Source: Bacteroidota bacterium (GTDB lineage Bacteria > Bacteroidota > Bacteroidia > UKL13-3). Taken from it: a stretch of 64,000 nt of DNA. The translations under genes were made by a program, and so were the position numbers. The notes under the pieces are model-generated. The model made no database searches. It had not been told where the DNA came from and saw nothing but the letters and a program-made list of their open reading frames with translations. Of the stretch, positions 30,784 to 46,022 are shown in pieces. Location: contig JAIYAT010000010.1 of the NCBI GenBank assembly GCA_027488905.1, forward strand, positions 21,061-85,060, written 5' to 3'. The first letter of the stretch is position 1. Every line of letters begins with the position of its first letter.

Positions 30784-31488
30784 ATGAAAAAAGCACTATT
30801 TATCATTCTTTTTGTTTTGCCAAATATAGTTTTGAGCCAAAGCTTTATTTTTTGTCCAGAAATCCAAACCAAAGAAAAGGATGGATTTAAGGAAGTAGAA
30901 ATCTCTTTTGTATTTGAGGATGCAAGATTATACGATAAGAAAAAAAAGGAAAAATGCACTAAAGAGGAAATATTTGAAAAGTTTGTGGAATGTATTAAAC
31001 AAACCTACCCAAATATGAAGGTAAAAGTACTTGATAATAAGAAGTTTTATGAACCTCCAGCAAAAGGAGTTATTACAGTAAAAATAGAATTAACTAAATA
31101 TGATGCCACATTTAATACTGGAATGTATCGGTCAAATACTGTTTATAAAGTAAAGATGTTTGATTTAAGAAATAACAAAGAAAATATAATAGAGCAAGTT
31201 ATATCTGGGGAAGGCAAGCAATTTAATGCATTAGGGTTTACAAGCGCTAAAATAGCCTCTAATATAAGTTTTAGAGCAGCATTTGATAATTTTGAGGTTC
31301 TGTTTGATAAGTTTTCAAAAATGCTTAATGTTCAAATTGTTGAAGAAAACAAAGTTCAACCATCAATTGCTACACCAAAATCAAAGGCGGAGAGATTAAG
31401 GGAACTCAAGCAACTTTTGGAAGAAAAGATTCTTACGCAAGAGGAATTTGATCTTGAGAAGAAAAAAATCCTAGATGAAAAGGAATAG
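30784..31488 (+). CDS. Secreted protein with C-terminal SHOCT domain
   Basis: Signal peptide; C-terminal KAERLRELKQLLEEKILTQEEFDLEKKKIL matches SHOCT pattern. Confidence 0.5.
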   Translation: MKKALFIILFVLPNIVLSQSFIFCPEIQTKEKDGFKEVEISFVFEDARLYDKKKKEKCTKEEIFEKFVECIKQTYPNMKVKVLDNKKFYEPPAKGVITVKIELTKYDATFNTGMYRSNTVYKVKMFDLRNNKENIIEQVISGEGKQFNALGFTSAKIASNISFRAAFDNFEVLFDKFSKMLNVQIVEENKVQPSIATPKSKAERLRELKQLLEEKILTQEEFDLEKKKILDEKE

Positions 31489-31639
31489 GTTGTAGTACTT
31501 TTGGTTTAGTCATGCATTTAGATTTGTAAGCTAAGCAATTTAGTTGTGATTTGCTTTCAGATTTAGTTCTTTCTATAATTACAACATGAGAATCTGCTGA
31601 TGTTTTATGTTCATCACTTTAACTTTTCAATTTTTTGTA

Positions 31640-31947
31640 ATTCTTCTACATCCATTTTATCTTTTATTCTTTCATTAGAAATTTTTGATAATATTAAATG
31701 GTTTAGATGTAATACTGGAATTTTTAGACCATTTATTTCCCCTAATACTTTTTGTTGGTAAGCTTCTTCAAATGAAATCCCTGTTATTTTTGTTAAAAAA
31801 TCTACTCGTATTGGAACTTCTCCAAAACTAAAGGCCTATTAAACCCATGATAATTTACAGCATATCCACCGATAAGTAGATACTCGGCCTCAAAATCTTG
31901 AAGAATTTTTAACAATTCTATATGTGGCTCGTAGAAAATATTCATTA
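31640..31947 (-). pseudogene. Degraded minimal nucleotidyltransferase (MntA/DUF6036-like) with at least two frameshifts
   Basis: Minus-strand translation MNIFYEPHIELLKILQDFEAEYLLIGGYAVNYHGFNRP then stop; downstream frames continue with ...ISFEEAYQQKVLGEINGLKIPVLHLNHLIL. Confidence 0.35.
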
Positions 31948-32202
31948 GTGAATTGTGATATTTCTTCCAAAATCTTTCAATAATTCAGTAGCTATTCCAA
32001 AAGCATTTAAGTTTAATTGATGCAGGTATTTCCATCTTTCTACCGGCTTTAAACTTAAAGAATAACTTCTGTTTTCTGCTTCTAAAGACTCAAATGAAGT
32101 AATGCGCAAAGAATTAGGATTATAGCTTTCCTTTGGCTGATATAGGCCATCTGGCTCATTTGCCATTTCAATAGAATCCAAATCAGCTTGATTTTCTAAC
32201 AT
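31945..32202 (-). CDS. Hypothetical 85-aa protein, upstream partner of the degraded nucleotidyltransferase
   Basis: ORF whose stop overlaps downstream ATG (TAATG). Confidence 0.3.
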   Translation of the reverse strand: MLENQADLDSIEMANEPDGLYQPKESYNPNSLRITSFESLEAENRSYSLSLKPVERWKYLHQLNLNAFGIATELLKDFGRNITIH

Positions 32203-32515
32203 GCGATTTTGCTTTTTTACAATTTCCTAAAATGTCAACTCAAAGGTAAATATTTGAAGCTAAATCCCAATGATTTAAGTAAGGTAAAAAAGGTTTCATA
32301 TAAAAGTTTTAAAGCAGTTTCGGGTTGAACCAAGATGGAATGTAGGGCGTAAGATGTGTTTTTAAAAGCTCCATCGGAGCATCCTGTTTGTAGGAAATGA
32401 TTTGTGTTTAAACAAAGCTCCGTAGGAGCGTTCTGTTGTTGAATAAAATAGATGTGCGTTCCAGATTATTCCAATACCCTTATTGCCGCCAATCGTCTGT
32501 TAGGCACAGTACAGA

Positions 32516-32685
32516 CTATCCTGCAACAAATTTCTTGCGAGCGATTCTCGGCTTTCTTGTTATTTTACTTTCAGGTTTATTCTTCTTATTTCTTAAATAC
32601 TCGCTGATAGAAAACTCTTCCTCTTTTGTTAGTGGACTTAACCCTCCAATTACATCCACATCTAATAATTTTGTTTTAGCTTTCA
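32516..32685 (-). CDS. Small hypothetical cassette ORF (56 aa), followed by attC remnant
   Basis: ATG 32685 to stop 32516; GCCTAAC-agacg-attGGCGG motif immediately downstream on the minus strand (plus coordinates 32463-32509). Confidence 0.2.
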
Positions 32686-32691
32686 TTTTTA

Positions 32692-33215
32692 CTAATTTCT
32701 AAAATACTTATTCATTAATTTTAATGCTGAAATAGTTTCTATAATCATCAACCTGCCTCCAAAATGTTTTGCCCCTAATGTTTCCTCGTAGTGACTTATC
32801 AAAACTGTTTTGGATACAAATGATACATTTCCTTCATTTCCTCGTTGAAATGACAATTTGCATGCAAATGCTACTAAATTTCTTGCTACGCCGGCATACA
32901 TTTTATTCTTACCCTTATTAAATGGTGAATTCTCTACTAAATGCATGTATACATGGTCGCTTTTAACTTCTAAACTTATTAATCCTTGAACTATTCTTGG
33001 ATTGCCTTGTATGGTAAGTTTGTAAACTTCTCTTAAGGGATTTTTTTATTCTTCTTTCCAATCAAATAACCATTTTTCTCGTTTAGAAACTAACTTTAAT
33101 TCACTCTTTTCTAATATCAATACCTCCGTCGCGAAACTGTCTCCTGTTATTATATTCTCGATTGAATTAGTTAATTTATCTACCTCAAAGTCTAATCCGA
33201 TTCTTGACTCTTTTT
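32692..33215 (-). pseudogene. GNAT N-acetyltransferase, frameshifted in a T7/A7 homopolymer (~33043-33049)
   Basis: Downstream frame carries GNAT motif A (NKMYAGVARNLVAFACKLSFQRGNEGNVSF); upstream frame (VKKESRIGLDFEV...WLFDWKEE*) supplies the N-terminal half. Confidence 0.5.
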
Positions 33216-33280
33216 TCACTCCACTAATTTACAAAGTTTTAGCTAAAACTCCAACTTTACTGCAATTCTTATTGTATTGT

Positions 33281-33412
33281 GCCTAACGGTTTGAAGATTT
33301 GCGAATTGGCGGATTTGGAACTTCAACCTGTCGACTTGCAACAAAGGTAAGATTGGAAACGGAACGTACAAGTACCTCTTCAACCCGCCATTTTGCAAAT
33401 GTGCTGTTAGGC
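33281..33412. repeat. attC-like recombination site (family C)
   Basis: GCCTAAC at 33281-33287, GTTAGGC at 33406-33412, paired inner boxes TTTGCGAATTGGCGGATT / AACCCGCCATTTTGCAAA, asymmetric 10/6-nt internal loop. Confidence 0.6.
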
Positions 33413-33487
33413 ACAGTTTTTTGTCTTACTTCTTCAATTATTTTTCGTATTATTTATGTCTATTGAAGTTGAAATTAAGTAAAAAAG

Positions 33488-34261
33488 TCAACCTTTATAA
33501 TTCATCTTATTCCTTACGATGTCTATAAAGCCTTTAAATACTAACACAAAAGGATTATAACCAGCAAAACCTGAGGTCACTCCGTACTTCACCTTTTCTT
33601 TTTCAGATTCGTATGTACCAAAAATTTTATCCCAAATAATTAATGTTCCACCAAAGTTCTTGTCAATATAAATGTCGTTTGATCCGTGGTGTACTCGATG
33701 GTTGGATGGTGTGTCAATAATATTTTCTAAAAACCCCAACTTGCCTACCGCTTCGGTATGTAGGAAAAATTGATACAATAAATTAAAAGAATAGCATAGA
33801 ACTATAAAGTCAAGTGGCAGTCCCAAGAAAGCAAGTGGAATGTAAAACACAGGGCTTATCAAAGCACCCAACCAATTAAGTCTGTAAGAAACAGTGAGGT
33901 TATAAAATTGACTTGAATGATGTACCAAATGAAAAGCCCAAAAAAACTTTACCATATGAGAGCATCTGTGAAACCAATAGTAGCAAAAATCTACACCTAA
34001 AAAAGTAATTAAAAACATAAGTGTCGATTCTTCAAAGGTAAACAACCGAAACTGGTAAAAGAGACCAAAAATCCATAACTGATACCCTGCAAAAAGGAAT
34101 TTGGATAGTTGAAATCCTGCAAAAATACTAAGGTTGGCAAGGGTGTCTTTTACACCATAAGCCTTTTTATCTTTACGCCAACTCCAAATAATTTCGGCTG
34201 CAATTAAACCAAAAATAAAAAGGAGGGCGTACAACTTGTATTGTCCAAATTCAAATTCCAT
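33488..34261 (-). CDS. Sterol desaturase / fatty-acid hydroxylase superfamily membrane enzyme
   Basis: Histidine boxes HRCSH, HLVHH, HRVHHG. Confidence 0.75.
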   Translation of the reverse strand: MEFEFGQYKLYALLFIFGLIAAEIIWSWRKDKKAYGVKDTLANLSIFAGFQLSKFLFAGYQLWIFGLFYQFRLFTFEESTLMFLITFLGVDFCYYWFHRCSHMVKFFWAFHLVHHSSQFYNLTVSYRLNWLGALISPVFYIPLAFLGLPLDFIVLCYSFNLLYQFFLHTEAVGKLGFLENIIDTPSNHRVHHGSNDIYIDKNFGGTLIIWDKIFGTYESEKEKVKYGVTSGFAGYNPFVLVFKGFIDIVRNKMNYKG

Positions 34262-34290
34262 AAGATTACTTTGTTTAGATTATTTTTGCA

Positions 34291-34593
34291 TTAATTGGTT
34301 TTCGTCCAAACTATTTCTTTTTTCATCATTCCTTTTTTTACCACAAATCTGATTTTATTTCCTTCTAAATAGGCTTCACAATTTGCGGATGTGTTTTTCT
34401 TCGGATTGCTCAAAATACCTTGCCACTTGCCATCGGTAAATGTTAAATTATTGAGCACCAACACATCTTTTCCTTGTGGTTTTCCAATAAATGCTAAACC
34501 CGATTTGTTTATTTCAATTATGGCACCTTCGGCAGTTTTCCATTGACCCGTAAAATTGTCAGTAGATTTTTGTGCCATTGCAAATACAGTCAT
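34291..34593 (-). CDS. DUF2147-like small secreted protein (start uncertain)
   Basis: GQWKTAEGAIIEI... pattern; upstream in-frame hydrophobic stretch has no ATG; A16 tract immediately 5'. Confidence 0.4.
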   Translation of the reverse strand: MTVFAMAQKSTDNFTGQWKTAEGAIIEINKSGLAFIGKPQGKDVLVLNNLTFTDGKWQGILSNPKKNTSANCEAYLEGNKIRFVVKKGMMKKEIVWTKTN

Positions 34594-34618
34594 TAATAGA
34601 GCTATAAGAAGCGAAATA

Positions 34619-34634
34619 TTTTTTTTTTTTTTTT
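34619..34634. repeat. Homopolymeric T16 (A16 on coding strand) tract
   Basis: Read directly from sequence at 34619-34634, just upstream of the DUF2147-like ORF. Confidence 0.9.
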
Positions 34635-34714
34635 AAAAATTACATAAATTAATGATGCAAATTTATACTCCCAAAGAGGATAAACTCATTAACAAAAGAT
34701 AATAAAGGTTATGA

Positions 34715-35260
34715 TTAATATTTTTTCTTTGAAATACGTTGTCTAATCCTACTCAAAGAAACAGGTGTAATGCCTAACACATTAGCAATGTACTTGTCGG
34801 GTACACGGTTAATCATATTTGGGTAATCTTTAAGATATTGTTGGTATCTCTTTTCAGGGGAGAGAAAAACAAAGGAATCAATTCTTTGAAAAGCTTGTTT
34901 CAAAATTTGTCGACCAAAAATCCTGCTGTCCATTTTTTGAAAGTCTAAATTGTCAGAACTTAAATCTTGAAAAGTTTTTACATCTGTAAAGTACACTTTT
35001 GTTTTCTCCAAAGTTTCAAAGGTAAACTTGGAAGGTTCATCAAATAAAATGGTATGAACATTTCCAAATAGTTGCTTCTCGGCAAACAACTGAAAAGTAA
35101 TTTCCTCACCTTTGTCATTTATCAAAAAACTACGAACCAACCCTTTTCGGATATAGAAGACATTATTTGTTTTATCGCCTTCTTTTATTATACTCTCTCC
35201 TTTATCAAATGTTTTTGAGTTAAGATTTCGTAATAATTTAAAAAGGAATTTTATGTTCAT
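34715..35260 (-). CDS. Crp/Fnr-family transcriptional regulator (start at MNIKF)
   Basis: cNMP-binding-like N-domain and C-terminal HTH (YIANVLGITPVSLSRIRQRI). Confidence 0.65.
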   Translation of the reverse strand: MNIKFLFKLLRNLNSKTFDKGESIIKEGDKTNNVFYIRKGLVRSFLINDKGEEITFQLFAEKQLFGNVHTILFDEPSKFTFETLEKTKVYFTDVKTFQDLSSDNLDFQKMDSRIFGRQILKQAFQRIDSFVFLSPEKRYQQYLKDYPNMINRVPDKYIANVLGITPVSLSRIRQRISKKKY

Positions 35261-35289
35261 TCGTTTTTTTGTTTCTGCGGTAAAATTGT

Positions 35290-35422
35290 GCCTAACGTTT
35301 TGCGGCTTGGCGTAGTGGCGGATTTTTAGCACTAATGCTCATACGAAGAACTGCACTTGAACCTACCACAAAACTGTCATACGAGGCACAGAACTCGCCA
35401 TTACGCCAAACCGCTGTTAGCC
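35290..35422. repeat. attC-like recombination site (family C)
   Basis: GCCTAAC 35290-35296, GTTAGCC 35416-35422; stems TTGGCGTAGTGGCG / CGCCATTACGCCAA; 10/6 asymmetric loop. Confidence 0.6.
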
Positions 35423-35431
35423 ACAGTTATT

Positions 35432-36349
35432 CTAATTCAAATTTCGGAATTCTGTCGGACTTAATCCTACTTTTTTCCTAAACAAACTACTGAAGTAGTG
35501 TGAGTGTTCAAAGCCCAAGGAATAGGCAATTTCTTTTATAGAGTCATCACTACCTAGCAATCGGTCTTTGGCAATTTCCAGAAGGTGAAAGTGAATATGT
35601 TCTTGAGTGGTTTTTCCTGTTTCTTTACGAAGTAAATCACTTAAATAATTGGGGGAAAGATTAACTTGATCCGCACATTGTAATGCTGTCGGAAGCCCTT
35701 TTTCGGGAAGGTTAGCTGAATCAAAGTAGTTTTTTAAATAAGTATTGATAGTATCAATCACCGAATTATTTTCATTTGCTCTGGTAATAAATTGTCGGTC
35801 ATAAAAACGATTACAGTGATTCAATAAATATTCTATTGCGGATATCAATACGTTCTTGGTGTGCTTGTCGATGGGTCGATTGAGTTCAGTTTCTATTGTA
35901 TTGATGATTGACGAAAGGCACACTTTTTCATCTTCGGACAAATGCAATGCTTCGTTCGTGGTGTATTTAAAGAATGAGTATTCAGTAATTTTGTTAAACA
36001 GAGGAGTACCATAAATCAAATCGGGATGAAAGTATAGACCCCAATTATACCTACACTCTTCGAAAACAGGATTTTGAATGGTACTTACTTGTTCAGGTAA
36101 AGAAAAGAACAAGCTACCTTCCTGAAAATCTATTTGCTTTCTGCCATATTGCAAGCTTCCTGACTTCAGATGTTTTAATGTAATTACATAAAACGATGAA
36201 GCCACTTGTAAACCAGTGTGTTGAGATTCCTTCTGATGGTTATCTAATTTTGAAAAATCAATGACACTCACCAAAGGATGCTTCGGTGGGGGGATTTGAA
36301 ACATGTTATGCAACATGCTAATACTTTCGATCCTGATAATATCCTTCAT
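35432..36349 (-). CDS. AraC-family transcriptional regulator
   Basis: C-terminal double HTH (YLSDLLRKETGKT...IAYSLGFEHSHYFSSLFRKKVGLSPTEFR). Confidence 0.8.
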   Translation of the reverse strand: MKDIIRIESISMLHNMFQIPPPKHPLVSVIDFSKLDNHQKESQHTGLQVASSFYVITLKHLKSGSLQYGRKQIDFQEGSLFFSLPEQVSTIQNPVFEECRYNWGLYFHPDLIYGTPLFNKITEYSFFKYTTNEALHLSEDEKVCLSSIINTIETELNRPIDKHTKNVLISAIEYLLNHCNRFYDRQFITRANENNSVIDTINTYLKNYFDSANLPEKGLPTALQCADQVNLSPNYLSDLLRKETGKTTQEHIHFHLLEIAKDRLLGSDDSIKEIAYSLGFEHSHYFSSLFRKKVGLSPTEFRNLN

Positions 36350-36352
36350 TGT

Positions 36353-36838
36353 TTATAAGTTGGATAGTTTTTCAAAATAAGTGTCTATTGATTTTTTTGA
36401 AACGCTTTCAATAATCAGGTTTCCAACCGAAAATATGACCAATGAAAACAGTATTCCTTTTACCAATTCTTTATCAATAAAGAGATTTATAAGCAATGAA
36501 ACAATGATTAATATAACAAGCACAATTTGAATTTTAGGGTGGTTATTTACCACCTTTGCCATTCGTTCCTTTTCTTTTTGATGAAACGTTGCCGAACTTT
36601 CCTTGTATAACAAGGTTTGATTTTTTAGTAATTTTTCTTCTGTCATTTTATACCCAATGCCACTAACAGATGAGAATAATCCAAATATAATCAAACCAAT
36701 TTTCAATCCAATTAATACTGCATTCGACCCGGAAAAATGAATCAGGACAGCCAAAAGTAGCATTATAAAACCCAAAGCCAACATATAGTTGGCAATTGTT
36801 TTTTGGGCGTTAATGTATATTTCCAATTGTTCAAGCAT
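36353..36838 (-). CDS. Hypothetical membrane protein
   Basis: Four hydrophobic segments; no family. Confidence 0.4.
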   Translation of the reverse strand: MLEQLEIYINAQKTIANYMLALGFIMLLLAVLIHFSGSNAVLIGLKIGLIIFGLFSSVSGIGYKMTEEKLLKNQTLLYKESSATFHQKEKERMAKVVNNHPKIQIVLVILIIVSLLINLFIDKELVKGILFSLVIFSVGNLIIESVSKKSIDTYFEKLSNL

Positions 36839-36876
36839 AATTTATTTTTTTAATTTTCGAAGACTGCTGTCCATTC

Positions 36877-37707
36877 TTATTTTATGGATGCGCCCGGCAA
36901 AATTTGGTCTATCAAACCATAACCAAACCATCTTTTCATAAACTTACCCAATTTGCCATCAGCGTTAGGTGCGTATCTTCTTTTTGGAGAACCGCTCTTA
37001 GCTGCATGTAATACGGCTTTTGCAATCGTGTCAGACGAAGCTCCATTTTGGCAACCTTTACTCCAATTTTTCCTGAAATTTTTCATCTGCTCCTTATACG
37101 GTCCGGCATTGGGGTGTTTTTCACACTTATCCAAGTAGGGCAAACTGGCAGTGGGAATATCAGTATTGATGTAGCCCGGCTCGATGAGTGACACTTTAAT
37201 ACCAAATTCTTTGACTTCCATACGTAATCCATCCCCGACACCCTGCTGTGCATGCTTGGTAGCGGGATACCATGCCATACCGGGAGAGCCCATATGCCCC
37301 GCAACTGAGGAAGTAATGATGATTCTACCCGATTTTTGTTTTCTCATGTGGGGTAGCACAGCGGTAAATGCCCGGGCATTGCCTAACACATTGACATCAA
37401 ATTGGTATCTGACATCTTCAATGCTTTGCAACTCTACCGGACCCAAGAGGCAAAACCCGGCATTGGCGAAAAGCACATCGATTCTACCATCATCCTTGAT
37501 AATGGTATCAACTACCTTCTGAATGTCTTCATCCTTTGTTACATCACAAGGCATAACTACTGCTCCCAACACTTCTAAATCTTTCATTAAATGAGTTCTT
37601 CTTGCGGTGGCATATACCTTGAAACCGTTTGCTAATAACATCTTTGCAGATGCGTGACCAATACCGGTTGAAGCTCCAGTAATAAATGCGATTTTTTTAT
37701 TTTCCAT
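36877..37707 (-). CDS. SDR-family short-chain dehydrogenase/reductase
   Basis: TGASTGIG Rossmann motif, catalytic YxxxK (YPATKHA). Confidence 0.85.
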   Translation of the reverse strand: MENKKIAFITGASTGIGHASAKMLLANGFKVYATARRTHLMKDLEVLGAVVMPCDVTKDEDIQKVVDTIIKDDGRIDVLFANAGFCLLGPVELQSIEDVRYQFDVNVLGNARAFTAVLPHMRKQKSGRIIITSSVAGHMGSPGMAWYPATKHAQQGVGDGLRMEVKEFGIKVSLIEPGYINTDIPTASLPYLDKCEKHPNAGPYKEQMKNFRKNWSKGCQNGASSDTIAKAVLHAAKSGSPKRRYAPNADGKLGKFMKRWFGYGLIDQILPGASIK

Positions 37708-37850
37708 TATCTTATCTTTTTTGACGTTTAATAATGGTGCAAATTTAAAATGTCAACCTGTATTACAGATTACACAAATCTCGGATAAGCATTCATTTTT
37801 CTTAGATTGTCTAATAGAGTCTGGTTATTGCGGGTCGCTTTCATAATTGT

Positions 37851-38024
37851 GGCTAACGTTTCGGCGCTTGGCGCAGTAAGGGAATGGTTAGCACAAATTT
37901 TGCCAAGGCACTTTACTCCAAAAATAAACTTTTCTGCCTTTTCTTTTTCCTTTTATTCTAATGCCCTTATTTCGCCAAACGCATTTTATAAGCCGTTTTT
38001 CTTTTCCTTAAAACAGGTGTTAAT
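37851..38024. repeat. attC-like site (family A, long variant with conserved ~100-bp internal segment)
   Basis: Left GGCTAACGTTTCGGCGCTTGGCGCAGTAAGG; internal ccaaaaataaacttttctgcc...ttttattc...gcccttatt; right ...gccaaacgc...; four similar copies in the array. Confidence 0.45.
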
Positions 38025-38538
38025 CAATTTTTTTCAAGCTGTCATTTCCATAATAGTTTTTCTCCCACTCAGAAATATCAACTTTTTCAATTTCTTTTTG
38101 CCTTTTTTTTTCATAATCATTTGCATTAATAACCCCAAATAGAATCCAAAATGTCGTCCCGCCTAAAAGCAAAAAAAGTCGTTGATTAAATTTCTTTTGA
38201 TAGTTCTCCTTTTTAAGTTCACTTAATGAAAGACCAACTGTCCACTGTCTTGCTAGAATAAATGGAGCCATAAGAAAAATATAAATCATTTTTTCTATTG
38301 TATAGCTTTCGGTCTCGTTTTGTTCTAATTTTTTTTGATAAGCTAATTCTAATTTTTCAGCTTTCTTTTTCCATCTGTCTAAAGTCTTATCTTGGTCGTA
38401 TCGGGTAACTTTCCGTTTGTTTAGTTCGTCCTTTGCTTGGTCTATTGCGTCTTGTTGCCAATCATCAATTGTTCCATTTGCAATTGCAATTAGTTCTTCA
38501 GTGTCACGCCTTGAAATTGGTGGATTAAACTCTATCAC
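38020..38538 (-). CDS. Hypothetical membrane protein (cassette ORF)
   Basis: ORF with two central TM helices. Confidence 0.35.
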   Translation of the reverse strand: MIEFNPPISRRDTEELIAIANGTIDDWQQDAIDQAKDELNKRKVTRYDQDKTLDRWKKKAEKLELAYQKKLEQNETESYTIEKMIYIFLMAPFILARQWTVGLSLSELKKENYQKKFNQRLFLLLGGTTFWILFGVINANDYEKKRQKEIEKVDISEWEKNYYGNDSLKKID

Positions 38539-38570
38539 TATGGTATCTTTTAAAATAGCTTAAAACGTTT

Positions 38571-38692
38571 GCCAGCTACGAGAAGTTGGAGCCTGTCAGC
38601 ACAAATATAGTTGCCCAGAACCAATTTCAATTAACCACAAATGTGTCAGCGTAGCGCTGAACCGCCAATTTGTTGTTGGTGCTGTTTTAGGC
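38571..38692. repeat. attC-like site (family C2; left arm degenerate)
   Basis: Right arm aaccacaaatgtgtcagcgtagcgctgaaccgccaatttg...GTTTTAGGC nearly identical to the 43290 copy. Confidence 0.4.
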
Positions 38693-38725
38693 TGTTATTT
38701 TTCATGAAATCATTTGGTCATGTTA

Positions 38726-39238
38726 CTAAATATAATGTACCGATATTCCTTTTGCACTAGATAATTGTCTTAAAATTGTATAAAGTTTATTTTTCTCAAA
38801 ATCGTTGTGGAGATAGATATTCATTTGGTAAGTTTCATTTTTAGAATCGATTATTGAAATCACATTCTTTCTGCCGCTATTAAAAGCACCTAGAACTATT
38901 AGAGTGGAGTTGTTTTCACCAAAGCAACCATCAAAGTGAAAGATTATTTGTTTTGGTTTTATTGTTTTTTTTATATGTGTTAATGTTTCAATTTCAATTT
39001 CATCACTATAAAGATTAATCTGTCCAGTTTTATGTTTGTCCTGAAAAAAAAATCTTAAGAATTTAAGTAATATTATGATAACGAATGTAAATGGACCTAA
39101 AACATAAAAATATTTTTCAACCAAATTTAAATGAAATGATAATAAAATTAGTCCAATACTAAAAAAGCCGATACTAAAAGACCAAATGTTATACTTTATG
39201 TCCTTAGGATTTACGATGTCAAATGTTGCTTTATACAT
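38726..39238 (-). CDS. Hypothetical membrane protein (cassette ORF)
   Basis: ORF, N-terminal TM helices. Confidence 0.35.
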   Translation of the reverse strand: MYKATFDIVNPKDIKYNIWSFSIGFFSIGLILLSFHLNLVEKYFYVLGPFTFVIIILLKFLRFFFQDKHKTGQINLYSDEIEIETLTHIKKTIKPKQIIFHFDGCFGENNSTLIVLGAFNSGRKNVISIIDSKNETYQMNIYLHNDFEKNKLYTILRQLSSAKGISVHYI

Positions 39239-39242
39239 AATA

Positions 39243-39388
39243 GCCTATAACGTTTATACGCTTGGCGCAGTAAAGGAATCGTTGGCTCTTTTTCTCCTCA
39301 ATATGTTACTCCAAAAATAAACTTTTCTGCCGTTTCTTTTCCCTTAAAATCCTCAAGCCGTTATTGCATCCAAACGCGTGTTAGCGGC
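39243..39388. repeat. attC-like site (family A)
   Basis: GCCTATAACgtttatacgcTTGGCGCAGTAAAGG ... CCAAACGCGTGTTAGCGGC; arms pair with 10/6 loop. Confidence 0.5.
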
Positions 39389-39407
39389 TGCTCCTTTTGC
39401 TCAGTGG

Positions 39408-40079
39408 CTATAAGTACATTTTCAAATTTTCGTTTTCATCTGTCTGATACAATTCATTAAGTAATACTTTCATCTGGTCATTATTTTTGAAGTTGTTGCC
39501 TGTAAATTGTTTAATTCTATTTATTACTTCTTCTGAATCCCATGATGCAATATTACTAGCAAATCTTACTACCATCCCATTGCAGCGCATATCAATTGTT
39601 CCACCCTCGGTGACGTATTGAAGTTGTTGTTCTGTAACCCCCAAACCTGTAATGTCAACAGTTCCGTTATCTAAGGGGTGTTTTGTGTAATTATTTTGAC
39701 TGGCAATTTCTAAACTCGAGACTTCGGATATTGAGAATGATTTTGTCTTAATTGATCCAAATTGTTTGTTAATAATAGTAATCTGGTCTTTCGATATTTC
39801 AAGTGATTCCCTATTCAATACTTTCTTTAGATATTCTCTACCAGCAAGTACATATACCACGCATAATGCAATAATTATTATGGCAGCAATGGGAATGTCT
39901 GCAATTAACCTTATTGTAACACTAGTAAGAAATAGTGCGGTAGCGATTAATAATACTCCTTGGAAAATTAGACCAAACTTTATGATTGGACTTACTGATG
40001 GATAAATCTCTATTTTTAGTTTGTCTTTACTTTCAGTAAACTTTAGGGTTTCTTTCATTTTTGATTTAGTAGTGGGCAT
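39408..40079 (-). CDS. Hypothetical membrane protein (cassette ORF; start at MPTTK, ORF track gives 40139)
   Basis: ORF with two TM helices; trimmed so as not to run into the attC-like site. Confidence 0.35.
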   Translation of the reverse strand: MPTTKSKMKETLKFTESKDKLKIEIYPSVSPIIKFGLIFQGVLLIATALFLTSVTIRLIADIPIAAIIIIALCVVYVLAGREYLKKVLNRESLEISKDQITIINKQFGSIKTKSFSISEVSSLEIASQNNYTKHPLDNGTVDITGLGVTEQQLQYVTEGGTIDMRCNGMVVRFASNIASWDSEEVINRIKQFTGNNFKNNDQMKVLLNELYQTDENENLKMYL

Positions 40080-40111
40080 AAACAATGGTTGCACATGGAG
40101 TTGCAGATATC

Positions 40112-40233
40112 GTTTGACAGCTAATCGCAGATGGCCCAATTGCGGACCATTCTTCGTGATAGCAGCTTATCAAATATAGAAAAATTTCGCCTAAGAACAA
40201 CTAGGGCCATTTGTATTTAGGTGATGTTATGCC
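40112..40233. repeat. attC-like site (family B, left end truncated)
   Basis: ...AGCTAATCGCAGATGGCCCAATTGCGGACC ... GGGCCATTTGTATTTAGGTGATGTTATGCC; near-identical to copy at 41599. Confidence 0.4.
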
Positions 40234-40243
40234 TAGTTAATTT

Positions 40244-40915
40244 TTAAAGAATCATTGGTGCCATATTGAAATTTGTGTCTAATTTTTTATTTCCAATGGA
40301 GTCAAACATTTGGAATTTCCCGTTTAATAATGAACCGCCACCTACTTTATTATTATAATAAGGTTTCTTATACAATTTCCAGTTTTCTATAGTATTAATT
40401 TTCCCATTTTTAAAGTAACTTTTAAGGACACCTGATGGCAACCCCGTATTGTAATTATTCAACCGAATATATGTGCCCTCAAACCAAATATTTCCGTTCT
40501 CATATGGTACTTTTACATAGACACTATCCTCGTATATAATGATACCTTTCAGAGCAAATGCTTTAGTATAGTATGGATGAGTGTTGTTAAAATATTCTGG
40601 AATAACTGACCATTGTATCTTGCCATTTTTAAAAAGAGCTAATGAAACTAATTTGTTCTTTTGTGAGAAATGGAATATTTTGGAAATACTATCTAGCTCA
40701 TTGTCTTTATAAAATACTTCTCTGATTTCATTATTTAAAGAGTCATTTATTTTCCATAATCCTTGTTTTAATCCTTTTTCATCTATAAAGTTAATTTCAG
40801 TCTTTATTTTAATATTACTTATTGAATCGGCAATTGGAATTTGTTGATTTTTAGCGTCCTTTCCTTGGTTAAAACAAGAGGAAATGAATAATATTATTAT
40901 GTAATGAAATTTCAT
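40244..40915 (-). CDS. Lipoprotein with MORN-variant (YwqK-like) repeats
   Basis: Lipobox SSC; repeated ...KNGKI...G.W..Y..NG units. Confidence 0.45.
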   Translation of the reverse strand: MKFHYIIILFISSCFNQGKDAKNQQIPIADSISNIKIKTEINFIDEKGLKQGLWKINDSLNNEIREVFYKDNELDSISKIFHFSQKNKLVSLALFKNGKIQWSVIPEYFNNTHPYYTKAFALKGIIIYEDSVYVKVPYENGNIWFEGTYIRLNNYNTGLPSGVLKSYFKNGKINTIENWKLYKKPYYNNKVGGGSLLNGKFQMFDSIGNKKLDTNFNMAPMIL

Positions 40916-40924
40916 CTTATAAAT

Positions 40925-41080
40925 TGGGCATTACGCTGTTTGTGTTCTTGGCGCAGTAAGGGAATGGTTACCACAAATTCGCTCAAGCACTTTACCCCAA
41001 AAATAAACTTTTCTGCCGTTACTTTTTCCTTTTATTCCAATGCCCTTATTGTGTCAAACGTGTCTTATGTGCTGTTATTT
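40925..41080. repeat. attC-like site (family A)
   Basis: gggcattacgctgtttgtgttcTTGGCGCAGTAAGG ... internal conserved block ... gtcaaacgtgtcttatgtgctgtt. Confidence 0.45.
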
Positions 41081-41578
41081 TTGCATGATTACATTTCTTT
41101 CTAGCTCTTTAAATAATGTCCACATATTTGTGACTTTGTTATAAAAGAACTTAGTTACTCGAACGTCCATTAAGGCTTGAGTTTGAAACAAAAAGTCCGA
41201 ATAAATGTCTTCTCTCCATTGAACAATATCTCCACTAATTATGACTTCTATTGTGTCGGTTTTTAGTACTTTGCGATAAATATTGTAAATGTATCTGCCG
41301 CTGTCCGCATTGTCTCCTTGGCATATGGCTTGTCTTGGTGTCTGATGTGCAATGAACCTAAAATGGTTTTGCCCGACTTTTCCATTTAGTAAAGTGGAAT
41401 CCAAGTCTGTCCGCATAATAATATAGCCATACCTCTTTTGGTCTTGATGGATAGATGAGTCAGAAAAATATTTTCTAATTGTCATATTATAAAGTCTTGA
41501 CAAATCTTTTTCAGTAGGCTTTTGACCAAAAGAAATTGTTGCCAACAAGATTGCTAGAATTAACATAAATTTAGGCAT
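41075..41578 (-). CDS. Hypothetical secreted protein (cassette ORF)
   Basis: Signal peptide MPKFMLILAILLATISFG. Confidence 0.35.
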   Translation of the reverse strand: MPKFMLILAILLATISFGQKPTEKDLSRLYNMTIRKYFSDSSIHQDQKRYGYIIMRTDLDSTLLNGKVGQNHFRFIAHQTPRQAICQGDNADSGRYIYNIYRKVLKTDTIEVIISGDIVQWREDIYSDFLFQTQALMDVRVTKFFYNKVTNMWTLFKELERNVIMQK

Positions 41579-41598
41579 ATTTTGTCGTCATTATAATA

Positions 41599-41732
41599 GC
41601 CACTAACGTTTAATTGCTAACCGCAGATGGCCCAATTGCGGACCATTCTTCATGATAGCAGCTTATCAAATATAGAAAATTATTCATAGCGAACAACCGA
41701 AGGGCCATTTGCGGTTAGGTGTTGTTAGCGGC
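41599..41732. repeat. attC-like site (family B, complete)
   Basis: GCCACTAACgtttaattGCTAACCGCAGATGGCC ... GGCCATTTGCGGTTAGGtgttGTTAGCGGC, clear inverted arms. Confidence 0.5.
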
Positions 41733-41780
41733 TGTTTTTTCTTTATTCCGAAGGTGTGTTGTTGAATGCACACACATAGT

Positions 41781-42368
41781 TTATTCAATGTTTGATAAAT
41801 CTAAATAATCTCCGCTGTCATGCCCTATGGCTACAAATAATTTCTCATTGCTTGTCAAAAAGAGTTTCCTGTTGAGTTTCGTTCTGATAATTTCATCAAA
41901 TGTCAACGAACAATAAGCTAGCGGTAAAATCCAGTCGAGGAATTCATAATTGTCTTTGTCAGTTCTTGCTATGTCTTCAATTTGTTGTAGCAAAGTTGGC
42001 TGAGCATAACTATTCTCTGGAACATAAATTGGGTCTAAAGCCCAATCTAAATCATCCTTTTCATACTTGTCCGCACCTGCTAAATAAATTGTTGGAATTT
42101 CTTTTTCATTATCCTCAAATTTTATAATACCTATCCAAAGCGCAACAACACTGCTTGGAAGCGGCGAGATTGTTACAAGATTTTGAAGCCATTCAAGAAT
42201 ATCTGCTTGTTCTTTGTCAATATCTAAATTTCGCAAGGCAGTCCAGTAAGGTTTAGGATTTGTGCTTTCGTGATTGTCAATAAAACTATTCCAAGCATCT
42301 TTTGCAGTTAGTTTTGCAGCGAAAATCGATGTCAAGCTATCCCAAGATTTGTCATGTTGAAATTCCAT
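41781..42368 (-). CDS. Hypothetical cytoplasmic protein (cassette ORF)
   Basis: ORF only. Confidence 0.35.
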   Translation of the reverse strand: MEFQHDKSWDSLTSIFAAKLTAKDAWNSFIDNHESTNPKPYWTALRNLDIDKEQADILEWLQNLVTISPLPSSVVALWIGIIKFEDNEKEIPTIYLAGADKYEKDDLDWALDPIYVPENSYAQPTLLQQIEDIARTDKDNYEFLDWILPLAYCSLTFDEIIRTKLNRKLFLTSNEKLFVAIGHDSGDYLDLSNIE

Positions 42369-42418
42369 ATCAGTTTTTTTCTGCTATCAGTTTAATGTTT
42401 GCACGATGATCCTATAAT

Positions 42419-42565
42419 AGCCGCCAATGTTTGTGTTCTTGGCGCAGTAAGGGAATGATTAGCACAAATTTCGCTCTTGCGCTTTAAGCCAAAAATAAAC
42501 TTTTCTGCCTTTTCTTTTTCCTTTTATTCTTAAGCCCTTATTGCCGCCAAACGCGTGTCGGCAGT
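42419..42565. repeat. attC-like site (family A)
   Basis: tagccgccaatgtttgtgttcTTGGCGCAGTAAGG ... gccgccaaacgcgtgtcggcag. Confidence 0.45.
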
Positions 42566-42573
42566 AGTGCTTA

Positions 42574-42993
42574 TTAGTCGGGTTTATTATTTTCCCAATA
42601 TTCTTTTGGTGTTACAATTTTGGTCTTTTTATAGGTCGAAAATGTAAAGTCATTTGTATTTCCAGTAATAACAAAGTTGGCTATGCTTTCGTCAGCAAGT
42701 TCCAAAATTTTATTATCATCAACATCAGAAATCAAGTCAAGTTTTATTCTCGGATGAAATTTAGTTGCCCTACTTTCAATATCCACAAGAAGAGATTCTG
42801 CCCGTATAAAAAAGTCTTGAAATTTCGCAAACTTTGGTCGAGCTAACACCTCATAATACTCGGCCATTAATTCTTCAGAAATACATAGTTGGAACTTGTT
42901 CTCCAGAAAAAGGTCGTTAATAATCTGGTTTGGATAACTTTTTTGAATTAAAGCTGAAACAATAACATTCGTGTCAATTACGATTTTTTGCAT
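42574..42993 (-). CDS. vapC: PIN-domain toxin (VapC-like)
   Basis: N-terminal IVIDTNVIVSAL with acidic residues spaced as in PIN domains; 139 aa. Confidence 0.7.
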   Translation of the reverse strand: MQKIVIDTNVIVSALIQKSYPNQIINDLFLENKFQLCISEELMAEYYEVLARPKFAKFQDFFIRAESLLVDIESRATKFHPRIKLDLISDVDDNKILELADESIANFVITGNTNDFTFSTYKKTKIVTPKEYWENNKPD

Positions 42994-43225
42994 TATGTCT
43001 AACAGCTTTTACTTCATTTGTTATTTCGTCAATATCCATATTAGAAAGACCATATTTTTCAGCGAGCTGAATGCATTTGTTTAGATTTTGACGAGTCAAT
43101 TCTTTACTCACAAGGTCGATAAAGTCTGTAAAATTTAGGTTGTCGTTTTTAATGCCGAATTTACTATACTCAAGGTCGGATATTGAAATATTCAAGGTTC
43201 TCATTTTTTTTATATCTATATTCAA
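42974..43225 (-). CDS. Putative antitoxin partner of the PIN toxin
   Basis: 83-aa ORF overlapping the PIN gene start by 20 nt. Confidence 0.45.
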   Translation of the reverse strand: MNIDIKKMRTLNISISDLEYSKFGIKNDNLNFTDFIDLVSKELTRQNLNKCIQLAEKYGLSNMDIDEITNEVKAVRHNAKNRN

Positions 43226-43289
43226 AAATAAGAAAAAATATTTGGGTTTAAGAAGGTCTTATTTTTTTGCAAATTTAAATAGCATTACT

Positions 43290-43419
43290 GCCAACGTTTT
43301 CGGGCTTGGCGAAGGTGGCGATTTTCACCACAAATGTTGATGCGGAAAACCAAACTTTGATTAACCACAAATGTGTCTGCGGAGCACTGAACCGCCACTT
43401 TTGCCAAACCCGTGTTACC
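43290..43419. repeat. attC-like site (family C2)
   Basis: GCCAACgttttcgggcTTGGCGAAGGTGGCG ... CGCCACTTTTGCCAAacccgtGTTACCT; 10/6 loop. Confidence 0.5.
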
Positions 43420-43429
43420 TGCTGCCCTT

Positions 43430-44248
43430 TTAGTTTTCATTCGTTATAAGTGAAAATTTTCCGTTGTTTAGTAAGGTCTTGATGTTGTCTAAAATTTGGT
43501 TGGGTGCGTAATAGTTTGGATGACTTTGAAAAATAGCAGCGTCATTCATTATAGCTTCTATTTCTTGTTTTGTCTGCTCTACTTGTCCCTTGTCGGCAAA
43601 TTTAAGGGAATTGGGTTTGAACCAATCCACTTCAATACAATAGTTGATTTGCTTTGAACAACGACAAGGATTTTTGGGGTCATAAATACCACATTGTTTT
43701 GCCATAAAAGCCCTTATTTGTTGTCGTGCTAAGGAAAGTCTTTTTCTGAACGTTGTTGGTTCAATGTCAAGAATGTATGCCCCTTCATTACTGTCAAACT
43801 CCAAGATTTCTCCAACCAAATATGCCAAACGTAACGTTCTCGACACACAAATTAGCATACTAGTACTACAAGCAATTTTTACTTCTTCTTCCAATAAGTT
43901 TGCATCGGCTTTTTCGTAGGCTGGGTAAGTTGCACCAACTTTAAGATGGTACTCGCCTTCTTCAAAGGTGAGGTTTTCAATTTCGGTTCTTTTCATATTC
44001 AGCAAATAGTTAGTTGCTACCCTATACACCCAGGTGGTAAAGCTACTTTCACCTTTGAATTTGGAAAGGTTGGTCAACACCTTCAAAAGAATTTCTTGTG
44101 TAGCATCTTCCGCATCCATCGGATTCCAGAGGTAACGAACAGATAAATTGTATACATTTCGCTGAATGCACCTTATCAGTATTTCAATGGATTTTTTATC
44201 ACCATTCAGGCAATTCTCTATGAGTTCTATGTAGTTTATTTTTTCCAT
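43430..44248 (-). CDS. Sigma-70-family (ECF-like) sigma factor with ~90-aa Cys-containing C-terminal extension
   Basis: Region 2 (DAEDATQEILLKVLTNLSKFKGESSFTTWVYRVATNYLLN), region 4 HTH, then CGIYDPKNPCRCSKQINYC extension. Confidence 0.65.
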   Translation of the reverse strand: MEKINYIELIENCLNGDKKSIEILIRCIQRNVYNLSVRYLWNPMDAEDATQEILLKVLTNLSKFKGESSFTTWVYRVATNYLLNMKRTEIENLTFEEGEYHLKVGATYPAYEKADANLLEEEVKIACSTSMLICVSRTLRLAYLVGEILEFDSNEGAYILDIEPTTFRKRLSLARQQIRAFMAKQCGIYDPKNPCRCSKQINYCIEVDWFKPNSLKFADKGQVEQTKQEIEAIMNDAAIFQSHPNYYAPNQILDNIKTLLNNGKFSLITNEN

Positions 44249-44278
44249 TCTCCGAACCAGTACTTATTAAATACAAAA

Positions 44279-44629
44279 CTAAGTAGCATAATAGAATTTT
44301 TCTTTCACTATCAAACCATTTTCCCAATGTCTTACTGCTACTTCAGGATAAATAATTTTTTCGCTCTGCTCATTGGTATAATCAAAAAGGACTTCCTGAA
44401 TGCTCAGATTTTCACCATACGCCACGCTTAAAACTTTGAGTTTTAAGTCGGGAAATGCCTCTACAAAACCACCACACTGTTCACGATTGAAGTATTTGCC
44501 CACTCGTGGTTCGGTTTCGTTTTCCTGCATCGTTATATTTTCAGCATAGAAAAGCTCAAATGCTTCCATTGCTTTACCTTGCTCAATCATTGTGTTGAGC
44601 TGCTCATTGTTGTGTTTAAAATTACTCAT
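44279..44629 (-). CDS. NTF2/SnoaL-like small protein
   Basis: 116 aa, composition and C-terminal W..G.I.KE.FYY pattern typical of SnoaL-like folds. Confidence 0.4.
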   Translation of the reverse strand: MSNFKHNNEQLNTMIEQGKAMEAFELFYAENITMQENETEPRVGKYFNREQCGGFVEAFPDLKLKVLSVAYGENLSIQEVLFDYTNEQSEKIIYPEVAVRHWENGLIVKEKFYYAT

Positions 44630-44649
44630 TTTTTAAAATTTCGATGTGA

Positions 44650-45300
44650 TTAATTAAAAGTTTTTCGCAGAAATAAACCAGCATTCGGGTTGAATGTTGT
44701 TTCCAATTCATTGCTAACAGGGTTTCTAAATGTCGGTATTTGCGTGTCGCACCCAATGCCAAACTGAAATCCTTTATGCTCAAGTCCGAGCCTTATTTGC
44801 TGAAAACTGAAGTTGTGTTGCTGGAAATTAAAGTTAGTGCTAAAAGTGAGTTGAGAAAAGAATTTCAGTTTTTTAGTCAATTTAGGGTTATACACTAAAA
44901 GTCCAAACATTTCGTAGTTTGGTTTATTGGTCAATTCAATGGTCGGGAAAACATTAAGGTACAAGTCTCCTTTTTCATTGAAGTATTGCAAAGAAATTGC
45001 TGCAATTGGAACAAAGCCTTGATTTGTCATATACCCCCCCGTTGCAACACCAACGTATTGATTAAAATTAAACGTTGCAACAGAGTAAATAAATGGGTCA
45101 ACTGTTGACCTATCCTTGTAGTCAACAGTAAAATAAGTCAGGTTAAAAAAGCTGACGATACCAAGAGAGTCAATGGGTTTAGAAATAAGGATTTCGTGTT
45201 GAGCCTTTTTGTGTCCGCCAAAGACTTCGCCATAAATGATTTGTGCTTGCAAGGTCTGGCTTAGAAATGCCAAAATGAGAATTAAGAAAATTTGCTTCAT
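44650..45300 (-). CDS. Hypothetical outer-membrane beta-barrel protein (start at MKQIF; ORF track gives 45492)
   Basis: Signal peptide then beta-rich sequence ending in F. Confidence 0.4.
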   Translation of the reverse strand: MKQIFLILILAFLSQTLQAQIIYGEVFGGHKKAQHEILISKPIDSLGIVSFFNLTYFTVDYKDRSTVDPFIYSVATFNFNQYVGVATGGYMTNQGFVPIAAISLQYFNEKGDLYLNVFPTIELTNKPNYEMFGLLVYNPKLTKKLKFFSQLTFSTNFNFQQHNFSFQQIRLGLEHKGFQFGIGCDTQIPTFRNPVSNELETTFNPNAGLFLRKTFN

Positions 45301-45519
45301 ACTTGTCTGAATAAACTGTTTTGTCCATTTGACACAATTCAACCTACAAGTGTGAAGTGAAATTTGAAATTTTTTTGAGGTTTGTCGTTTAGGGTTGCAG
45401 GTAACTCTTTTACTTGCGAAGCAAAATACTAAATTAAGGTTAATTATTGTGAAATTGCCGATGGAAATTATCGTTTTATTGAAAGTTAGCAATTGATTAA
45501 TTTAGGTTCAGAAAGGCTC

Positions 45520-45756
45520 CTAACTCTCCAATACACCCGCACTCACACCCACACTCTTGCTCACACTCACACTCTTGCTTTTCACTCTTTCTCTTCCCTC
45601 TTTCTCTTCCCTCTTTTTCTTCCCTCTTGCTCCATACTGCTTATGTACCCCGCAATCAGTTTGGAGTGTGAGTCTTGAGCAAGAGTTTACGCACTTAATG
45701 AGAGTCTTCCAAAGCACTCTTTCTCCTCCCTCTTGCTCCATACTGCTTAGGTACCC
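45520..45756. repeat. Polypyrimidine (CT / CA-CT) low-complexity tract with ~45-bp internal direct repeat
   Basis: cactcacacccacactcttgctcacactcacactc... ctctttctcttccct units; ctcttgctccatactgctta(t/g)gtacccc occurs twice. Confidence 0.8.
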
Positions 45757-45758
45757 CC

Positions 45759-46022
45759 TTGGATTATCGTGATTACCCCCTTGGATTAACATGGACACCC
45801 GCTTGGATTAACATGGTTACCCCCTTGGATTAACATGGTTACCCCCTTGGATTAACATGGGTACCCGCTTGGATTAACATAGGTACCCGCTTGGATTAAC
45901 ATGGGTACCTGCTTGGATTAACATGGGTACCCCCTTGGATTAACATGGGTACCTGCTTGGATTAACATAGGTACCCGCTTGGAGCATCGTGGGTACCCCC
46001 TTGGTGTAACATATATAAGAAG
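45759..46022. repeat. 22-bp tandem direct repeat, ~12 copies (consensus TTGGATTAACATGGGTACCCSC), iteron-like
   Basis: Units begin at 45759, 45781, 45803 ... 46001 with exact 22-bp phasing; terminal copies degenerate. Confidence 0.9.

Follow-up and report, generated by a model that had tools for sequence, protein, structure and literature searches.

What kind of system strings together, on one strand of a bacterial chromosome, genes that are each followed by a long imperfect inverted repeat? Such a region occupies the middle of the stretch analysed here, 64,000 nucleotides of contig JAIYAT010000010.1 from a Bacteroidota bacterium (assembly GCA_027488905.1, positions 21,061 to 85,060), called the window in the following. 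An earlier interpretation made from the letters alone (the sequence-only reading) had taken the region for an integron-type array of gene cassettes with attC-like sites, which raises two questions: whether the genes were gathered as cassettes, and which recombinase could have gathered them in a window where none was recognised. Our analysis indicates that the window very probably contains an array of integron-type cassettes formed by a cassette mechanism; eleven cassettes were delimited, from position 45404 down to about 32466, and their open reading frames (ORFs) are all on the minus strand. The joint statement that this is a cassette array and that a non-classical IntI-like recombinase acted on it in trans is, in our judgement, probable, with less assurance than the cassette array itself.

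Sites were defined by reading the intergenic DNA, by repeat finding and by BLAST of the candidates against the window. Ten complete hairpin sites and one truncated site (s1) were located between 32.47 and 43.42 kb, all intergenic and on the strand of the ORFs, which makes up the eleven that the sequence-only reading had counted. In plus-strand coordinates the complete sites span 134-149 nt, within the 120-175 bp proposed for them, and they belong to three sequence families: family A (s4, 37848-37994; s6, 39242-39389; s8, 40925-41073; s10, 42419-42566; and the s1 stub, ~32466-32509), family B (s2, 33278-33415; s3, 35287-35425; s5, 38557-38693; s11, 43286-43423) and family C (s7, 40102-40235; s9, 41598-41733). 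The RYYYAAC and GTTRRRY ends that had been described after each ORF or ORF group were confirmed, including the individual cores GCCTAAC at 33281 and 35290, GTTAGGC at 33406 and GTTAGCC at 35416. The 7-mer GCCTAAC alone was not enriched (8 matches for 5.9 expected); the signal is in the whole structured repeat. No further copy was found in the 64-kb window by BLAST with the sites or by the covariance model R2 described below, and a comparison with Rfam gave nothing at gathering thresholds, the single match being a chance one at E = 8.

Either strand of the sites folds into the same long imperfect hairpin. From the outside to the inside, its layers are an R box (nnnnnnTAAC/GTTAnnnnnn), an asymmetric internal loop, an L stem of about 20 bp and a variable terminal part. 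On the coding strand the order is R''-(1-6 nt)-L''...L'-(5-10 nt ending AAAC)-R', with 4-5 more unpaired bases on the R' side than on the R'' side. The covariance model R2, built from 14 sites (alignment A5), detected 54 sites across the window and 12 related loci, with four to nine sites per locus and always on the ORF strand; on class 1 integron loci it detected none. In the R2 alignment 76.9% of the cells were paired, compared with 61.4% after shuffling and 31-38% when the partner was slid. It was also observed that 27 of the 30 stem pairs vary on both sides, and that the covariation score (0.389 versus 0.149) was not reached in any of 500 shuffles. Variation is almost absent from the four inner R-box pairs (TAAC/GTTA), one position conserved in all families is an A.C on the top strand, that is a G.T on the bottom strand, and family A has a single bulged base on the L'' arm. 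Fitting the alignment to R2 itself favours the structure; evidence that the pairing is genuine comes from the slid controls and from the numerous double changes seen between families B and C. This covariation supports the earlier proposal that the sequence of the sites varies while their fold is kept.

A cassette reads on the coding strand 5'-TTRRRY, then the ORF or ORFs, R'' (nnnnnnTAAC), the long imperfect hairpin and AAAAC-G-3'. If the crossover takes place at the G↓TT of R' (the arrow marks the point of exchange), the outer half of each R' present in the array belongs to the next cassette, and R'' should pair with the start of its own cassette. Over 36 sites from all loci, the outer 6 nt of R'' were complementary to their own cassette start at 5.06 positions of six, compared with 2.56 of six for the adjacent R' and 2.35 for random pairs; the own cassette start was the better partner in 30 of the 36 sites (Wilcoxon p = 1e-6). 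Within the window, the outer 10 nt matched the own-cassette partner at 79 positions of 100, compared with 48.7 +/- 5.8 in permutations. The rule is visible in single sites: the outer R'' of s10 matches its own cassette start at six of six positions and the adjacent R' at three of six, and for s4 the corresponding values are five and one. Reconstituting the sites as they would be in circular cassettes lowered the summed fold energy from -178 kcal/mol in the array to -201 kcal/mol. A second, independent type of evidence came from two metagenome contigs, L036 and L038, which share a nearly identical cassette composed of a 118-aa ORF and a family A site. Their downstream neighbours differ (on the upstream side, L036 extends only some 30 nt beyond the shared start), and the identity stops exactly at ...GCGCCAAAAC GTTA (AAAAC GTTA), which places the site 3' of its ORF and the boundary within R', as in integrons. 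In all these respects, an ORF followed by its site, RYYYAAC...GTTRRRY cores and a crossover at G↓TT, the anatomy is that of integron cassettes.

The array also has a defined beginning, the third independent line in favour of cassettes. Upstream of the first cassette lies a conserved non-coding head (45406-45700, minus strand) which, on the coding strand, is GA-rich at first and then AT-rich over 115 nt. Positions 17-440 of L022, a locus from a different metagenome-assembled genome (MAG), match it at 71-95% identity and lie directly upstream of the first cassette there. The two heads align up to G↓TTA and diverge afterwards (alignment A1). The leader ends ...AAAAGAG↓TTACCTGC in the window and ...AAGAGAG↓TTAGCGGC in L022. 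The attI-like junction of the window (45397-45412, minus strand) reads ...AAAAGAG↓TTACCTGCAACC on the coding strand, with the G at 45405 and the first cassette starting at 45404. The start of this first cassette, GTTACCTGC, pairs with the R'' of s11 at nine of ten R-box positions, compared with five of ten for the adjacent R', and taking it as the partner changes the folding free energy of s11 from -20.4 to -29.4 kcal/mol. An analogous head junction was present in locus L021, with nine of ten matches to the R'' of its first site. The head is thus a conserved platform that ends at the first G↓TT, as an attI site is; unlike attI, it has no integrase gene adjoining it. A metagenome scan with a 22-mer of the conserved head gave no matches.

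With a 21-mer taken from the loop of family A, related arrays were detected in at least four further Bacteroidota MAGs of freshwater type, as well as in a few JGI contigs. They have the same three site families and different genes, most of them without a Pfam family, together with Fic/Doc and PIN toxins. At the four array heads available (the window, L018, L021 and L022), no integrase was present in the upstream sequence examined, the L022 contig being cut within its tandem repeat. In one of these arrays (L018, ~2290-2420, minus strand), a Fic/Doc toxin gene ends in frame exactly at the start of a site R'' (GAGGCATAAC); an intact homologue is carried by L037 (3910-4296), and the break looks like a site-mediated deletion.

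A candidate for the recombinase came from these relatives. Locus L019 contains a tyrosine recombinase gene divergent from a cassette, followed by an IS91-type Y2 transposase gene. The integrase belongs to a very large family of proteins that are 72-97% identical and lie mostly on contigs of about 2.4 kb, and the integrase-transposase (int-tnp) pair recurs in unrelated contexts. When R2 was run with its filters off, a strong site (70-73 bits) was seen to abut the integrase in these int-tnp contexts too. The integrase, at one stage set aside as an IS91 passenger, was reinstated as a candidate because a site abuts it in every context and because the boundaries of the unit are site cores. The int-tnp unit measures about 2.4 kb and was seen in L049-L058, L019, L026 and L027. 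P0012, an integrase found in identical form in at least ten contexts, was in each case divergent from a set of co-oriented genes with R2 sites between them; the genes near it include those for PhzF, an S9 peptidase, a beta-lactamase-fold protein, an erythromycin esterase and others. In L049 the array runs on at both sides of the unit.

The ends of the unit follow the pattern of the cassettes. The conserved block upstream of int ends ...GGTTTCGTTC(A/G)AC (CGTTC(A/G)AC), and beyond it the site body differs in each context; in L052, L058 and L027 the site bodies beside the unit are of the s11 family. Past the transposase gene lies a variable nnnTAAC, then a conserved short hairpin and GTTGAACG. 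Taken in its own direction, the unit runs G↓TTGAACG, int, tnp, CGTTCAAC, GG, an 11-bp stem, TAGCT and G↓TT, and its start is complementary to its R'' at 11 of 13 positions. Judged by these ends, the int-tnp unit is itself a predicted cassette under the same rule, inserted in inverted orientation into sites of the families present in the window.

P0012 shares 31% identity with IntI1 (E = 1e-34) and aligns with it at the catalytic residues (R, K, H-x-x-R, H and Y); about 34 residues of the IntI-specific insertion are absent from it. It scores 172 bits against the integron integrase model TIGR02249 (cut-off 265), and its best NCBIfam model, NF040815 ('XerA / integron integrase'), gives 183 bits, below the cut-off. 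IS91-associated tyrosine recombinases have been described as the nearest IntI homologues that are without the IntI insertion (10.1101/542381); a literature search retrieved no paper tying them to cassette arrays. From its position at related sites and the anatomy of its unit, a P0012-type enzyme appears to be the best candidate recombinase for the array, an assignment to which we give about even chances.

The mechanism that we propose is as follows. Cassettes would be gained or lost singly, site-specific recombination acting on the G↓TT of the 3' core, which implies that each site in the array is chimeric, its 3' outer half being derived from the next cassette. The array would begin at the attI-like junction that ends the non-coding head, and the head, through a putative promoter, would probably also supply the transcription of the array. 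The recombinase would be a simple Xer/IntI-like tyrosine recombinase without the IntI insertion, and not a classical IntI; it would travel with an IS91-type HUH transposase on a cassette-like unit and act in trans. As no recombinase was recognised among the window ORFs scanned, the copy present there is taken to be sedentary. Signs of decay are visible in its eroded stems, its frameshifted gene and its truncated last site. A broader formulation, which we put forward tentatively and hold to be slightly less than evenly supported, is that Bacteroidota have an integron-like system of their own, with long non-canonical hairpins, an IntI-sister recombinase carried on a self-mobile cassette with an IS91-type HUH transposase, and integrase-less arrays as sedentary products.

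Several observations weigh against this account. A scan of 40 ORFs of the window, comprising 24 from the array or its immediate flanks and 16 others of at least 150 aa, revealed no Phage_integrase domain. A proxy attC model (R1) was made from seven class 1 attCs of plasmid integrons, whose loci were obtained by tblastn with IntI1; it recovered the held-out arr-3 and estX attCs (21-22 bits, E = 0.002-0.005) and found none of the approximately 50 sites of the window and nine related loci. The attC covariance-model search by which the sequence-only reading could be checked thus went against it; R1 being a seven-sequence proxy, this result weakens canonical membership without excluding it. Among the ten complete sites of the window, only s2, s3 and s9 fold better than dinucleotide shuffles (z = -3.59, -3.29 and -3.46, respectively); the family A copies do not beat their shuffles (z = +1.47 for s8), and several copies look eroded. 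Thermodynamic stability, significant in just these three sites, was not retained as evidence of the fold. On folding, the check that the sequence-only reading had suggested, both strands give the same hairpin, and the unpaired spacer is reversed with respect to the canonical attC. No sign of present-day shuffling was detected: exact-protein look-ups of a cassette protein showed one gene order in all sampled contigs, and in the population that is 100% identical to the window the order of cassettes is constant, contigs merely breaking at the repeats. Finally, the link to the recombinase rests on adjacency and anatomy in other contigs, the unit being absent from the window, and the int-tnp unit could be a mere insertion sequence that targets these sites.

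With these points in mind, the strongest competitor is an ordinary cluster of attC sites lacking an integron integrase (CALIN), built by a classical IntI encoded elsewhere in the genome or since lost, the sites being divergent true attCs that the model of IntegronFinder itself would accept. With at least two sites within a few kilobases (the spacing is 0.7-2.6 kb among the ten sites) and no integrase near, the array has the composition of a CALIN, on condition that its sites are of the attC type. Its cassette anatomy, G↓TT crossover and RYYYAAC/GTTRRRY cores are exactly integron-like; CALINs are common and the attC sites of any one host lineage are homogeneous (PMC4889954), cassette-less IntI genes (In0) are known in Bacteroidetes (PMC9024848), and the attC model that we used is a proxy. 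We nevertheless consider a classical CALIN unlikely, at perhaps one chance in a few, since all of these sites escape a model able to recover held-out attCs, the extra unpaired bases are on the R' arm and not on the R''/L'' arm where the IntI insertion reads extrahelical bases, no integrase was seen in the upstream sequence examined at any of the four heads, and the sole tyrosine recombinase found touching such sites is without the insertion.

It may also be imagined that the hairpins are substrates of the IS91-type HUH (Y2) transposase and that the genes were picked up and strung together by rolling-circle or single-strand transposition that begins or ends at GTTC/AAC sequences beside the hairpins. 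HUH transposases do recognise single-stranded hairpins, the transposase accompanies the recombinase in every case, and the int-tnp unit ends in GTTC, which we take to be the classical IS91 target tetranucleotide. The rule that links a cassette start to its own R'' and the exact GTT/AAC exchange on both sides are those of reciprocal site-specific recombination; one-ended rolling-circle capture predicts neither of them, and arrays such as that of the window hold neither a recombinase nor a transposase gene, which renders this origin improbable. Still less credible, indeed hardly tenable, is that the sites are passive intergenic repeats, such as repetitive extragenic palindromic (REP) sequences, miniature inverted-repeat transposable elements (MITEs) or long terminators, spread in a variable island without mobile cassettes. 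The sites do follow stop codons and could terminate transcription, several are thermodynamically unremarkable, and gene order is constant in the sampled population. Dispersed repeats would not be expected to be missing from the other 50 kb of the window and to occur at the 12 other loci always as co-oriented arrays after ORFs, and passive repeats account neither for the chimeric-core rule (p = 1e-6), nor for a nearly identical cassette in two contexts, nor for a defined head junction. An array of Xer/dif modules does not fit either: pdif modules are bounded by 28-bp XerC-6-XerD sites of alternating orientation, whereas the sites described here are 134-149-nt hairpins in a single orientation.

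The preferred reading, a cassette array served in trans by a non-classical recombinase, can be compared with the known systems. Like sedentary chromosomal integrons and CALINs, the window has co-oriented and mostly single-gene cassettes, many of unknown function and one with a toxin-antitoxin pair, imperfect palindromes with RYYYAAC/GTTRRRY cores, a G↓TT crossover and chimeric cores, few and homogeneous site families, and an attI-like first junction. Unlike them, its head has no adjoining intI, its sites are invisible to the proxy attC model, and its host is a member of the Bacteroidota. The sites themselves also differ: in class 1 integrons the canonical attC layout is R''(7)-spacer(5)-L''(8, one extrahelical base)-loop-L'(7)-spacer(5-6)-R'(7), hence an L stem of 7-8 bp compared with about 20 bp here, and in the present sites the R' arm carries the longer unpaired spacer, by 4-5 nt, whereas the extrahelical bases of integrons are on the R''/L'' arm. 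A canonical integron would have its integrase adjoining the array, and none adjoins this one. In conclusion, the interpretation as an integron attC array stands for the cassette architecture, the boundaries and the attI-like start, and does not stand for membership in the canonical family, on account of the missing integrase, the R1 result and the reversed spacer. The argument that such an array would be new because integrons are mainly proteobacterial needs correction, as integrons of Bacteroidota are rare but known: the 2016 account had In0 elements only, integrases without cassettes, and a single complete integron, that of Salinibacter ruber, followed in 2022 (PMC9024848; PMC8618304).

The int-tnp unit shares with the IS91-family elements that carry a tyrosine recombinase (Smyshlyaev et al.) a recombinase at related sites, IntI-like and without the IntI insertion, followed by a Zn_Tnp_IS91/Y2_Tnp transposase; unlike in the present case, cassette anatomy, a position inside attC-like sites and an association with cassette arrays were not found in the descriptions of these elements, and the window has no such element. 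It resembles the attC-targeting elements (IS1111-attC and the group IIC-attC introns) in that it inserts exactly at the core of a hairpin site, and differs from IS1111-attC, which encodes a DEDD transposase, by encoding an IntI-like recombinase. An intron was also encountered in a related array: at 2530-4495 (minus strand) of L024, a group II intron with reverse transcriptase and maturase domains (RVT_1, 2e-40, and GIIM) starts with GTGTG directly after the ...GCGCCAAAAC of a family A site, where it replaces the R' core, in the orientation of the cassettes. Classical IIC-attC introns are antisense to the cassettes and lie at the other end of the attC; the L024 intron, in sense orientation and at the R' end, is unlike them. 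Archaeal integrons with XerA-like integrases are likewise integron-type systems outside Proteobacteria. Those of Ghaly et al. (2022) were reportedly detected with the standard attC model and have integrases adjoining their arrays; the window array differs in both respects, having no adjoining integrase and no standard-type attC detection (as judged with the proxy model).

The prevailing view holds integrons to be essentially proteobacterial, and their cataloguing relies on a single attC model and a single integrase signature. The present results suggest that a large and environmentally dominant phylum stores genes in cassette arrays that such tools may miss, and that the recombinase may come from the branch nearest to IntI, devoid of the domain thought essential for reading folded attCs. 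If this is true, it would widen the known reach of cassette-based gene capture, offer a natural comparison for how the recognition of hairpin sites evolved, and provide the tyrosine recombinases of IS91-family elements, so far unexplained, with a function.

The cargo of the array was identified with Pfam, and for the first cassette with Pfam and NCBIfam; all cassettes are on the minus strand and are given here from the head downwards, with the R2 score of their sites. Cassette 1 (43295-45404; s11, 102 bits) encodes a secreted protein of no known family (44650-45300), a SnoaL-like protein (44279-44629) and an extracytoplasmic function (ECF) sigma factor (43430-44248). Cassette 2 (42428-43294; s10, 113 bits) contains an antitoxin-like ORF (42974-43225) with a weak VapB match (0.005) and a PIN toxin gene (42574-42993; PIN_3, 1.5e-20). 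In cassette 3 (41607-42427; s9, 96.6 bits) a 195-aa ORF without Pfam family was found (41781-42368). Cassette 4 (40934-41606) ends with the eroded site s8 (90 bits) and encodes a 167-aa protein (41075-41578) that, given its N-terminal hydrophobic stretch, is probably secreted. A 223-aa MORN-repeat-like protein (40244-40915) is the product of cassette 5 (40111-40933), whose site s7 (86.4 bits) has a degenerate 3' core (GATATC). The next two cassettes encode membrane proteins: cassette 6 (39251-40110; s6, 108.6 bits) one at 39408 to ~40079, and cassette 7 (38566-39250; s5, 87 bits) one of 170 aa (38726-39238). One arm of s5 is decayed, and mispairing is visible in its fold.

Cassette 8 (37857-38565; s4, 108.7 bits) has a 172-aa ORF (38020-38538). 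Cassettes 9 and 10, like cassette 1, carry three genes each, which makes three of eleven: a short-chain dehydrogenase (36877-37707), a membrane protein (36353-36838) and an AraC-type regulator (35432-36349) for cassette 9 (35296-37856; s3, 95.9 bits); a cyclic nucleotide (cNMP)-binding regulator (34715 to ~35260), a 100-aa ORF (34291-34593) and a fatty-acid hydroxylase family protein (33488-34261) for cassette 10 (33287-35295; s2, 79.4 bits). Cassette 11 (32466-33286), at the distal end of the array, is decayed. Its gene is frameshifted (33046-33219 and 32692-32946) and is 56% identical (tblastx) to an intact 174-aa ORF at 5968-6492 of L021; its site s1 consists of R'' and about 45 nt of the family A 5' arm, without 3' arm and R', resembles family A over 20-30 nt only and gave no R2 match. 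Most of the remaining cassette products have no family. Compared with the cargo that the sequence-only reading had listed, the PIN toxin, the short-chain dehydrogenase and regulators (of the AraC-type, cNMP-binding and ECF sigma kinds) were recognised by Pfam, the antitoxin match was weak, and the acetyltransferase (GNAT) was not confirmed, as neither the frameshifted ORFs at 32692-33219 nor the intact 174-aa homologue had a Pfam match. The fatty-acid hydroxylase and the SnoaL-like protein are further Pfam-confirmed cargo.

Upstream of the head lies a tandem repeat of 12-16 units of 22 bp (GGTACCCCCTTGGATTAACATG; 45704-46055, no strand assigned), the unit of which holds a core-like GTTAATC on the coding strand. 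L022 has this repeat as well, ahead of its head (1-91). In the related strain L059 (~6790-6950) no array occurs within 870 nt after it, and its membership in the system is uncertain. In L018 a different tandem repeat, of 66 nt and containing GTTGAAC/GTTGAAA, occupies the equivalent place. By analogy with DR1/DR2 of attI1, the tandem repeats at the heads could be putative accessory recombinase-binding repeats. A 13-mer, TAGATTGTGTAAA, is present in exactly three copies in about 317 kb, each at an array head (window, 46036-46048; L018, 2799; L021, 4678). L059 diverges from the window right after a half copy of this motif; no clean empty site was found in this closest strain, synteny being lost directly after the repeat and the motif. 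Two other candidates at the head were rejected. An invertible head was not retained, the inverted repeat around the tandem repeat being of 10 nt with one mismatch and not above chance. A 243-aa ORF (46126-46857) was discarded as a novel recombinase, as it has no Pfam, NCBIfam or PDB relative and only 10 homologues, and as a part of the system, as it occurs in L033 and L062 without any site nearby. Downstream of this protein are the 22-bp repeat in the window and 1.5 kb of unrelated low-complexity and tandem-repeat DNA in L033 (10730-12258); in L062 a 118-aa ORF follows its gene within about 150 nt.

At the opposite end, two copies of a 26-nt hairpin motif (AAAGCTCC-NNN-GGAGC...) lie at 32365-32447, just past the truncated last site. 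Metagenome contigs identical to the window end at 32436, inside the second copy, and the motif is probably a repeat present elsewhere in the genome. Logan contigs that match the flanks at 100% identity all end at 46897 and at 31570-31577, wider than the array, a pattern that strain variation or repeats may explain. On the minus strand at 31590-32202, in the interval that separates the end of the array from the conserved left flank, an 85-aa and a 47-aa ORF without Pfam family overlap by one base and are followed by a further open stretch, which from the reading frames looks like one frameshifted gene. The cumulative GC skew peaks at about 31000-32000, at the left edge of the array and at the same place as the switch of gene strand from plus to minus; the peak may reflect the direction of replication, which bears on which strand of the sites is single-stranded.

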